Shown here one piece after another: positions 3,565-6,120 of a DNA stretch of 64,000 nucleotides; the first letter of the stretch is position 1; each line of letters starts with the position of its first letter. This DNA is from Nitrospirota bacterium (GTDB lineage: Bacteria; Nitrospirota; Nitrospiria; Nitrospirales; UBA8639). Both the position numbers and the translations under genes were made by a program. The stretch is taken from the NCBI GenBank assembly GCA_011088105.1, contig JAALKI010000001.1, forward strand, positions 30,353-94,352, given 5' to 3'. The notes under the pieces were generated by a model, which made no database searches, was not told the origin of the DNA, and worked only from the letters and a program-made list of their open reading frames with translations.

Positions 3565-3583
3565 GATAACAAAAATCAATATC
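3565..3583. promoter_or_regulatory. weak Fur/Zur-like box
   Basis: gataacaaaaatcaatatc matches about 15 of 19 positions of GATAATGATAATCATTATC. It lies 21-39 nt upstream of the ATG at 3544. The local context is AT-rich, so a chance match is plausible. Confidence 0.25.
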
Positions 3584-4028: not shown

Positions 4029-4595
4029 TCACGTCAACTGAGAAGGAGACTGGATATTTCTTCGAAATTGCGCCGGAGAATGCCCCATGGCTTTTTTAAA
4101 GAAATGGCTGAAGGCAAATGCATTTTGAAACCCCAATGCTTCAGCAATGTGTGCGAGAGATCGCTCTCCACCCATCAAAAGGCTTTTGGCTTTCTCAAGG
4201 CGAAGCCGTTTAAGATAGCAGGAAAATGGTTCGCCCATTCGCCTTTTGAAGAGTTCAGCTGCATATTTCTCCGAATACACAAGGAATTCGGCAATATCCT
4301 GAAGCGTGACCCGTTGGTCCAAATGGGCAGAGATAAAGAGATGGAGTCTTGGTTGGAAATCATCGGCAGAGCCATTCATCTGGCTCAACTCATCAAATAA
4401 TTCGCAAAACATCTTATATGTCAGGTGTGTGGCTTCGCCCTTTTCTAGAACATCCATGACCCGTTGCAACCATCTAGCAGAGTAGCATCGAAACTCTTGA
4501 ATGAATGGCTCAATCCGTTCTGAGCCAGTAGCTTCTTTTACGGCATCGTCCCCTACCCCACTGCTCATGCCCTTGTTGTATGTTTGACGATTCAT
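4029..4595 (-). CDS. AraC-family transcriptional regulator
   Basis: The C-terminal double HTH reads LQDIAEFLVYSEKYAAELFKRRMGEPFSCYLKRLRLEKAKSLL ... IAEALGFQNAFAFSHFFKKAMGHSPAQFRR. Confidence 0.8.
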   Translation of the reverse strand: MNRQTYNKGMSSGVGDDAVKEATGSERIEPFIQEFRCYSARWLQRVMDVLEKGEATHLTYKMFCELFDELSQMNGSADDFQPRLHLFISAHLDQRVTLQDIAEFLVYSEKYAAELFKRRMGEPFSCYLKRLRLEKAKSLLMGGERSLAHIAEALGFQNAFAFSHFFKKAMGHSPAQFRRNIQSPSQLT

Positions 4596-4814
4596 GGAAC
4601 CTGTCGTTTGAAAAACCCTCTAGTAGTTTCTTTCGTACCGGACAAAGACAATGTCGGTAATGTTATGACGTGGGTCTATTTACAACGGCGGCATTTCCTT
4701 TCAAGACCATTCGAGGTCATTTTGGCAATGAGCAGACCACAAAGACAGCGACAATCCATTGGATCTTATTGATGAAGTATTTGGATGAGAAACAGTCATG
4801 TTTATATCGTTTTT

Positions 4815-4854
4815 TACAAAACAAAAAACCTAAGGCCTGTCTTTATGCCTTAGG
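4815..4854 (-). terminator. Rho-independent terminator
   Basis: The minus-strand RNA forms CCUAAGGC, a 10-nt loop and GCCUUAGG (a perfect 8-bp stem, 4854-4829), followed by UUUUUUGUUUUG. Confidence 0.55.
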
Positions 4855-4917
4855 CACATGGTTCAAGACCTTTAGACCACATTTTTGAACACATGCCAAC
4901 CATATAAAGTAATGATA
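4815..4917 (-). ncRNA. candidate Fur-repressed small RNA (about 100 nt)
   Basis: On the minus strand there is a -35 TTGCAA (4953-4948) and A/T-rich -10 candidates (GATAAT 4932-4927, AATAAT 4929-4924) overlapped by the Fur box. A long imperfect stem follows (4885-4897 pairing with 4853-4866), then an intrinsic terminator. There is no SD-led ORF inside. Confidence 0.35.
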
Positions 4918-4926
4918 ATCATTATT
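4908..4926. promoter_or_regulatory. Fur box (16/19 match to consensus)
   Basis: agtaatgataatcattatt versus GATAATGATAATCATTATC. Positions 3-18 are identical, including the core palindrome AATGATAATCATT. Confidence 0.5.
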
Positions 4927-5154
4927 ATTATCAATAAAAGACATCACTTGCAACTGCACCGCGCTGGATACAAACAACTTAGTCGCGACTCAGACCAAAT
5001 TCATGGTCGAAAAGTATGCTGCACATTCTCACTCTAAGCCTCAAGCCCTCACTTATTGTCTAGCTCTGCCAGGAAAAGGGTTTCATTTTTTTATGATATT
5101 TTCTGATATGATTGTTTGGGTGACCGTTCATACCTTAATGAAGGAGCCAATTCC

Positions 5155-6120
5155 ATGAATGTTCTTGTTACCGGAGGCGCTGGCTATATTGGCGCTCACG
5201 TTGTCCGCGTGCTTGCTCAACACGGCCATACGCCTATTATTCTTGATGATTTGCGTTCCGCATCATACGAACGCATTGGAGATTTTCAACATGAACATGT
5301 CGCGCTTGAAGACACCAGCAAAGTCATGGCTGTCTTTCAAAAGTATCAGCCTGAGGCCATTGTGCACCTTGCAGGTTCTATTAGCGTAAGGGAATCTGTA
5401 CAGACACCTGAAAAATATTGGGCCAACAATCTTGGTGCAGGGATGAGTCTTCTGTTGGCATGTGCACGATTTCCAGTACGGATTTTTCTCTTTTCTTCGA
5501 GTGCGGCAGTCTATGGGAATGCGGTTGAGACACCCATCCGAGAAAATGCTATACTAGAACCTACATCCCCCTATGGCAGCTCTAAGCTAGCATTTGAACA
5601 CACACTACATAGAAGTGCTCAGGCTCTTGGCATGTGTTCCATCGCCCTCCGTTATTTCAATGCCGCAGGTGCCCATACAGCCTGGGGAGTCGGGGAACAG
5701 CATGACTCCGAAGAACATCTCATCCCAAAGGTCATTCGAGCCCTGCTAACCGCACAACCAGTGCAAGTCTATGGCAACGACTACCCTACTCCGGATGGAA
5801 CCTGCATCCGTGATTATATTCACGTTGTGGACCTTGCCGAAGCTCATGTTTTGACGCTAGAGAATGAGTATCTGGGGAATCAACACAACTTCAACGTTGG
5901 TACAGGAGAAGGCTATTCGGTTCTTGAAATTATTTCGGCTATTGCCACACGCTTGTCAGTAACTCCCCAGATTACATTTCTTTCAAGACGCCCAGGAGAC
6001 CCTCCACGCCTCATTGCTGACCCTTCTGCCCTGCTGTCCCATGTAGGATGGAAGCCTGTTCATTCAAGTCTCCAGGAAATTGTTAATTCTGCAGTCGAAT
6101 GGGAACTAGTCAGATGCTAG
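5155..6120 (+). CDS. galE: UDP-glucose 4-epimerase
   Basis: Starts MNVLVTGGAGYIGAHV (Rossmann GxxGxxG) and has the YGSSK catalytic motif. SD AAGGAG at 5141-5146 favours the ATG at 5155 over the TTG at 5116 used by the track. Confidence 0.9.
   Translation: MNVLVTGGAGYIGAHVVRVLAQHGHTPIILDDLRSASYERIGDFQHEHVALEDTSKVMAVFQKYQPEAIVHLAGSISVRESVQTPEKYWANNLGAGMSLLLACARFPVRIFLFSSSAAVYGNAVETPIRENAILEPTSPYGSSKLAFEHTLHRSAQALGMCSIALRYFNAAGAHTAWGVGEQHDSEEHLIPKVIRALLTAQPVQVYGNDYPTPDGTCIRDYIHVVDLAEAHVLTLENEYLGNQHNFNVGTGEGYSVLEIISAIATRLSVTPQITFLSRRPGDPPRLIADPSALLSHVGWKPVHSSLQEIVNSAVEWELVRC

Follow-up and report, generated by a model that had tools for sequence, protein, structure and literature searches.

A candidate Fur-controlled leader RNA ahead of an araC-type gene carries a structured module found across Nitrospiraceae

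Iron-regulated small RNAs of the RyhB, PrrF, NrrF, FsrA and IsaR1 type have a Fur box over the promoter, a short non-coding transcript ending at an intrinsic terminator, and a link to the iron regulon. In attenuators, riboswitch platforms, BglG-LicT RAT elements and ANTAR targets, a promoter is followed by a structured RNA containing an intrinsic terminator and then by a gene, and cis-regulatory RNAs are usually recognised by a motif that recurs upstream of genes with related functions. Small RNAs derived from 3' UTRs (CpxQ, SdhX) originate at operon ends, and leader-derived ones (SreA/SreB, rnTrpL) from terminated leaders. Nitrospiraceae are nitrite oxidisers and complete ammonia oxidisers of soils, oceans and wastewater plants, and with their haem and Fe-S enzymes they are heavily iron-dependent; we found no description in the literature of post-transcriptional iron control in this family, nor of small RNAs in Nitrospira, which is not proof of absence.

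The locus analysed here combines, as predictions, the features of the first two groups. It lies in a 64,000-nt stretch of DNA from a Nitrospirota bacterium (the window), within a 520-bp spacer between a minus-strand araC gene and a divergent plus-strand gene for an NAD-dependent epimerase (listed as 5116-6120; its true start is likely the ATG at 5156, behind AAGGAG). An initial annotation of the window had proposed an iron-responsive small RNA or else an attenuated leader through which Fur would control the araC gene. The latter fits the comparative data best, and we give roughly even credence to the view that the RNA is a Fur-repressed, terminator-containing leader whose terminated product is a small RNA, possibly also trans-acting. 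Positions 4960-4029 can accordingly be annotated as one predicted Fur-controlled unit (promoter, structured RNA, small ORF and araC), with the following features:

4948-4953, minus strand: -35 hexamer TTGCAA, from the promoter scan, identical in the syntenic contig L079.
4908-4934, no strand assigned: Fur-box array of three overlapping 19-mers, each matching at 16-17 of 19 positions, within TTGATAATAATAATGATTATCATTACT.
4817-4917, minus strand: predicted non-coding RNA of ~100 nt (terminated leader or small RNA), its 5' end placed from the -10 hexamer and its 3' end from the U-run, supported by folds.
4854-4896, minus strand: lineage-specific hairpin (stem 1) of 11 bp with one bulge, arms 4896-4885 and 4866-4854.
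4816-4882, minus strand: copy of a conserved Nitrospiraceae RNA module, 67 nt, with a distal GGNC-NAAG motif, hairpin P1 and terminator P2 with a conserved base.
4817-4854, minus strand: intrinsic terminator with a 9-bp stem and a 10-nt loop, followed by UUUUUUGUUUUG.
4676-4759, minus strand: unannotated small zinc-ribbon ORF (ZnR2) of 27 codons, MDCRCLCGLLIAKMTSNGLERKCRRCK, ending at an in-frame TAG.
4029-4595, minus strand: AraC-type regulator of 188 aa, with a short N-terminal domain and HTH_18 (Pfam, E=4.5e-21).

The Fur box that the initial annotation had placed at 4908-4926 is borne out: AGTAATGATAATCATTATT matches the consensus at 16/19 positions, and two further overlapping matches lie one hexamer over, at 4914-4932 (16/19 on the plus strand and 17/19 on the minus strand, GATAATAATAATGATTATC). 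The window contains three Fur matches with at most 3 mismatches, against 0.02 +/- 0.14 expected from 100 shuffles, and the whole genome (2.6 Mb, 48% G+C) has only four sites of this quality, two of which are this spot. The repression geometry described earlier, with a -35 hexamer and an A/T-rich -10 overlapped by the box, is also real and is conserved in L079. On the minus strand, TTGCAA (4953-4948) and AATAAT (4929-4924) are separated by 18 nt and form the only promoter-like site between 4424 and 5262; promoters were scored solely against the sigma-70 consensus, and start sites are predicted from them. The predicted Fur-box array overlies both this -10 and the predicted start near 4917. The genome encodes a Fur homologue (C40:90832-91215) with 43% identity to an E. 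coli Fur sequence, as well as a weaker homologue on contig C53, and the same type of box precedes zinc-ribbon operons and short-RNA genes in other Nitrospiraceae.

Two further Fur-like sites were observed in this genome. One, GATAACAAAAATCAATATC at 3565-3583 of the window, matches the consensus at 15/19 positions and lies 21-39 nt upstream of a 107-aa ORF (3544-3221, minus strand), which is followed by an 82-aa CPRC...CLNC protein; neither ORF has a Pfam or NCBIfam family, and the pair is missing at the corresponding place in L079. The other, at C12:33156-33174, is a 16/19 Fur/PerR-type box located 80 nt upstream of a 202-aa ORF. ORFs near it, judged by eye from their translations, resemble a ferritin-like protein, cytochrome c peroxidase and a PerR-like regulator of the Fur family, and by this sequence context the box may be a site of an oxidative-stress and iron-storage regulon.

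The predicted RNA folds into two adjoining hairpins. The first had been described as a 13-bp bulged stem and folds instead as the shorter stem 1, which encloses the small P1 hairpin of the family, GGU/ACC (4871-4869 with 4861-4859). In the second, described earlier as a perfect 8-bp hairpin before a U-run, CCUAAGGC (4854-4847) pairs with GCCUUAGG (4836-4829) and a closing G-U pair brings the stem to its full length; the hairpin (4854-4829, -13.8 kcal/mol) directly follows stem 1 and precedes the U-run at 4828-4817. A simple terminator scanner missed it solely through its loop limit of 8 nt. The 17-codon ORF reported inside the RNA exists (MVGMCSKMWSKGLEPCA) and is not conserved in L079. The 16-17-codon peptides inside the RNA were rejected as genes, the L079 frames being just 3-5 codons long. 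The proposed non-coding nature of the stretch is supported. A plus-strand ORF of 72 aa (4670-4888) was likewise rejected, as it has no family and is antisense to the conserved zinc-ribbon ORF.

L079, an ENA metagenome contig and the sole syntenic contig compared, has the gene order DsbD_TM, thioredoxin-like, epimerase, spacer, araC and HemD-APH fusion, and its AraC protein is 63% identical to that of the window. Conservation in relatives, proposed as a check in the initial annotation, is found here for part of the structure. The -35 hexamer and a 29-nt block with the Fur boxes are invariant between the two, and the terminator is kept with a compensatory U-A/C-G change (CCUAAGG/CCUUAGG to CCCAAGG/CCUUGGG), whereas stem 1 is not kept, the L079 RNA folding otherwise, and the remaining spacer has diverged. 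The HemD-like/APH-kinase fusion at 3-1709 of the window (minus strand) is conserved at 6328-8567 of L079, where it has an additional AAA_33 match and spans at least 816 residues. Other sources of comparison were less informative. The exact match to the window AraC, in assembly GCA_012271395.1, is 100% identical over 2,092 nt and so adds no comparative information; the AraC protein searched against wider genome contigs gave only distant HTH matches from unrelated phyla; and the reference genomes include no other species from the genus of the window's genome.

These data bear on the simplest objection, that an A/T-rich spacer resembles a Fur box and a hairpin by chance. Taken as a whole, the RNA folds just slightly more stably than shuffled sequences (z = -1.3 to -1.8), as chance would allow, and our case therefore rests on conservation and not on energy. 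Against chance stand the excess of Fur matches over shuffles, the conservation of box, -35 and terminator in L079, and a covariance model E-value of about 1e-11 for the window copy of the module described below; conservation data contradict this explanation, and we regard it as scarcely credible.

The AraC-type regulator reported downstream of the RNA is confirmed, and between it and the terminator lies the small zinc-ribbon (ZnR) ORF, which had been overlooked. In L079 the ZnR ORF encodes 73 aa, starts 12 nt past the U-run and overlaps the araC start by 8 nt, so that it must be transcribed through the terminator; substitutions between the window and L079 are mostly synonymous or conservative. 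In the window the in-frame TAG falls directly after the last cysteine pair, where L079 has CGA, and the conserved C-terminal part (...THV..P) lies past it. The frame beyond the TAG runs to a TGA (4594-4592) overlapping the araC ATG (ATGA), and the same TAG base is present in a second assembly (L034). The TAG could be a recent nonsense mutation, a site of stop-codon read-through or the mark of a decaying gene, and part of the unit may thus be decaying. The overlap of ZnR with araC in the window frame, in L079 and also in genome G008 indicates that the two form one unit. A sigma-70 consensus scan of the minus strand detected no promoter-like site between the terminator and araC, and ZnR and araC therefore seem dependent on the Fur-box promoter and on read-through.

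We identified ZnR homologues in 107/115 Nitrospiraceae genomes with a profile built from three sequences. The family is unannotated, comprises proteins of 50-80 aa with the pattern CxCxCGxL[IL]AK...[IL]KC[KR]RCK, and has no Pfam or NCBIfam model. Its gene is usually the first of a Fur-box operon, located ~60-110 nt past the Fur-box matches in eight genomes (G125, G126, G128, G010, G023, G116, G017 and G124). The window's own genome has this canonical operon on another contig (C19:24951-28253), with a Fur-like box at about C19:24831-24860. In both spacing (C-x-C/CxxC ... KC-x-RC-K) and basic character, ZnR resembles phage Mu Com (Zn_ribbon_Com, PF10122), a zinc-ribbon protein that binds RNA and activates translation. 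Unlike Com, it stays below the Pfam cut-off: two homologues match PF10122 at E=0.025 and 0.12 (12-14 bits against a cut-off of 22.9), and the window and L079 proteins do not match it. A search of PDB profiles returned an unrelated best match at E=0.37. The likeness to Com is thus just a lead.

The 3' part of the predicted RNA belongs to a family-wide module, which the initial annotation had overlooked; elsewhere it closes or interrupts transcripts of iron operons and stands ahead of tonB- and fecI-type genes. Searches (blastn) with the window region against 40 and then 115 relatives returned Fur-box matches only, the RNA being too diverged; the module emerged once the upstream regions of araC homologues from other genera (35-47% identical) were aligned. 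Its layout is ...GGCC[A/C]GAG, small hairpin P1, CCAGAGCCCAAG, a variable upper stem and loop, CUUGGGCU[C/U] and a U-run. The terminator base GAGCCCAAG/CUUGGGCUC is near-invariant, with an almost invariant lower stem (GAGCCCA/UGGGCUC) and an upper stem that covaries freely. Covariance model R1 detects the module in 91/115 Nitrospiraceae genomes, from 11/13 genera, and scores the window copy, the sole one in its genome, at 52.2 bits (E=6e-11 to 7e-12). Small genomes mostly have one copy, a few have two, and large genomes have up to 8. With 52 bits, against 60-78 for the best-scoring copies, the window module ranks with the most divergent of the full-length copies, and conserved motifs are altered in it.

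Both hairpins of the module are supported by covariation. In a MAFFT alignment of 22 copies (A2), analysed with RNAalifold and pair counting, P1 and P2 have 88% of cells paired and 9 pairs with changes on both sides, a score reached by 0/500 shuffles. In a further alignment of 75 copies (A5), 94.8% of cells are paired and 11/16 pairs have compensatory changes, and controls with slid partners collapse in both A2 and A5. The alignment that was fitted to the covariance model is biased towards it; the MAFFT alignment agrees with the model. No Rfam family matches in 17 related module loci, and the module is apparently an undescribed RNA motif of Nitrospiraceae. Three other interpretations of the conserved sequence were considered and rejected. 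A DNA operator formed by the GAGCCCAAG...CUUGGGCUC inverted repeat does not agree with a spacer of 10-22 nt, a covarying upper stem and a T-run that always follows, and inspection of A2 revealed neither conserved CsrA-type GGA motifs nor a conserved ANTAR dual-hexaloop signature.

In about 80 copies surveyed, every context is same-strand and linked to iron genes. In the commonest setting, the module lies 15-60 nt past the stop codon of an Aq_1264_TM gene (PF27139), which closes a Fur-box operon of ZnR, a porin-like protein, a lipoprotein, FMN_bind and Aq_1264_TM; an ApbE gene is found near this operon, and MacAB-like and TonB-ExbBD genes are found downstream. On the same strand, the operon-end module precedes either araC or a gene for a ~586-aa haem-motif (di-haem-like) protein, in the latter case with a second module and araC beyond. 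AraC homologues (35-63% identity) are encoded past the module in at least 18 loci. No same-strand gene follows it within 700 nt in about half of the small-genome loci, where the module acts only as a 3' end. In the window, in L079 and in G083 (genus g10), the order is Fur-box promoter, RNA of ~95-100 nt, optional ZnR and araC. Elsewhere the module has no ORF upstream and is preceded by a Fur-box promoter of its own (TTGAC[A/G], ~17 nt, ATGATAATAATTCTCACTATCA), giving a predicted RNA of ~170 nt. Eight such loci (L134, L138, L142, L047, L153-L155 and L158) have a conserved 5' domain that includes CCUCCUCC or CCCUCAUUC, and in genera g7 and g11 a TonB_C-domain gene begins 90-140 nt past the RNA, with no second box or promoter seen. 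Genus g4 has an own-promoter module, a fecI-like ECF sigma gene, fecR, another module and an STN-Plug receptor gene (fecA-like). In several large genomes (genus g11: L145-L151, L156 and L157), a stop-ridden stretch resembling the 3' end of Aq_1264_TM lies just upstream of a well-conserved module, with an intact Aq_1264_TM ~660 nt upstream of the module; by its sequence, the stretch looks like a decayed remnant.

Additional structures were observed around some of these loci. Further conserved hairpins lie between the terminator and tonB in the g7 and g11 loci with ~170-nt RNAs. In genus g3, which has small genomes, the module is followed by a further pair of conserved hairpins, GGAGUGGG..CCCGCUCC and CCGGGAGGC-(CUCCUCCUGA)-GCCUCCCGG, the latter then followed by a C-run; they lie between module and araC in nine loci (L082, L083, L087-L090, L104, L105 and L111) and may be a second structured leader element ahead of araC. 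Among the reference genomes, that of G007 (genus g8), in 20 contigs, totals 16 Mb, which is several times as large as the genomes of its relatives, and is reported as 98% complete with 1% contamination.

The comparison across genomes also allows the window copy to be weighed as a functionless relic of rearrangement, in which a duplicate of the operon's Fur promoter was fused to the operon's own ordinary terminator through loss of the structural genes, the RNA being a by-product and the terminator insulating araC. Such an origin would suit the presence of the canonical operon elsewhere in the genome with no module after its Aq_1264_TM gene, the divergence of the window copy and the in-frame stop of the neighbouring ZnR ORF. 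It is at odds with the order promoter, module, ZnR and araC being kept in L079 at 63% protein identity, with box and stem constrained and flanks diverged, and with a similar order of promoter, module and araC in G083, from a different genus. Furthermore, a near-invariant lower stem across 11 genera is unexpected for a plain terminator. We consider the relic explanation unlikely.

More weight is due to the initial proposal of a stand-alone, trans-acting Fur-repressed small RNA, an analogue of RyhB, PrrF, FsrA or IsaR1 that would be the promoter's only product and save iron by pairing with mRNAs; in that case an unrecognised promoter of their own would serve ZnR and araC, and elsewhere the RNA would have its own Fur promoter or derive from the 3' UTR of the Aq_1264_TM operon. 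The architecture, a Fur box leading to a strong terminator, fits such an RNA, and the primary sequence of the module is conserved well past the needs of termination. Moreover, the module is single-copy in most small genomes, is retained after the decayed Aq_1264_TM remnant in several genomes, and has own-promoter versions in the window, in L079 and in genera g4, g7, g10 and g11, and the C/U-rich CCUCCUCC stretch of the ~170-nt versions could mask ribosome-binding sites.

Comparison with the known small RNAs gives a different picture. No family reaches its cut-off in the Rfam search that had been suggested: at permissive thresholds PrrF comes closest, with 19.3 bits where its gathering score is 90, and the other iron-related families (RyhB, NrrF, FsrA and others) do not match. 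The PrrF score stems from the terminator and from the opening ~34 positions of the model, which contain UUGAC and a Fur-box-like stretch and are presumably PrrF's own promoter region; the score therefore reflects a shared architecture, not homology. Hfq (PF17209) is absent from 21/21 Nitrospirales genomes, namely the window's and those of 20 relatives, and is found in 5/14 controls including E. coli and B. subtilis; tblastn of the window's genome with an E. coli Hfq sequence returned nothing. Riboregulation in the sampled Nitrospirales must thus use other chaperones or none. Target prediction, also suggested earlier, was done as a crude, non-comparative RNAduplex scan of 3,739 start regions, and its best value of -39.6 is within the range of five shuffled controls (-37.9 to -43.1). 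In addition, the altered motifs of the window copy, the start of the L079 ORF 12 nt past the terminator and the position of tonB after the long versions, with no visible promoter, all argue against a stand-alone RNA, which we judge possible rather than probable. Unlike the RyhB and PrrF type, the window RNA precedes same-strand genes that apparently have no promoter of their own, and its 3' module also ends protein-coding operons.

The reading as a Fur-controlled leader draws on a different set of likenesses. A promoter precedes the module and a same-strand gene follows it, the sigma-70 scan detecting no further promoter in the interval and the tonB loci being alike, and the motif recurs beside araC, tonB, fecI/fecR, the fecA-like receptor gene and the FMN_bind/Aq_1264_TM operon. 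As in terminator-containing leaders, one conserved motif thus recurs ahead of functionally related genes, and primary sequence is conserved around the 5' half of the terminator. The module differs from attenuators and riboswitches in having no conserved antiterminator alternative and no evident ligand pocket, from ANTAR targets in its unconserved P1 loop and missing hexaloop signature, and from terminator-containing leaders in general in that it also sits directly after stop codons. Inspection of A2 and of the folds revealed no conserved alternative pairing that would remove the terminator; an upstream copy of the 5' half of the stem could pair with the 3' half, but the U-run would even then be preceded by a hairpin. 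A trans factor would therefore be needed for any control of read-through, and the near-invariant lower stem and flanks suggest one that is shared. Against the leader stand the apparent strength of the terminator, given which the downstream genes might instead use a promoter unseen by a sigma-70 scan, the small-genome loci in which the module has no same-strand gene after it, the divergence of the window copy and the premature TAG in the window's ZnR ORF. By analogy with small RNAs derived from 3' UTRs and leaders, in which one module comes from an operon end or from a terminated leader, the module could have both cis and trans outputs.

From these features we infer Fur binding, the start site, the efficiency of termination, and read-through and its control, as follows. 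With sufficient iron, Fur would occupy the box array (4934-4908) and block the sigma-70-type promoter TTGCAA-18-AATAAT. When iron is low, transcription would start near 4917 and most transcripts would stop at the strong terminator (4854-4817), giving the ~100-nt RNA, while the read-through fraction would serve as mRNA of the ZnR ORF (4759-4676) and araC (4595-4029). With most transcripts stopping and the remainder forming the ZnR/araC mRNA, the RNA would be a Fur-controlled, terminator-containing leader, that is, an attenuator; the terminated RNA may additionally act in trans.

A bolder proposal, distinctly unlikely on present evidence, is that the module (the distal GGCC-NGAG motif, P1 and the GAGCCCAAG/CUUGGGCUC base) is the RNA target of ZnR, which would provide RNA-level control of iron genes under Fur, through protein-dependent antitermination or translational activation at araC, tonB and fecI-type genes, with the terminated leaders possibly also serving as small RNAs. 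The analysis flags a widespread, unannotated family of small zinc-ribbon genes at the head of a Fur-box operon, and a covarying module without an Rfam entry, found behind Fur boxes and ahead of tonB, fecI and araC, which is a testable handle on iron regulation in an Hfq-less lineage. If ZnR does bind the module, these Hfq-less nitrifiers would have a second, RNA-level layer of iron control under Fur.
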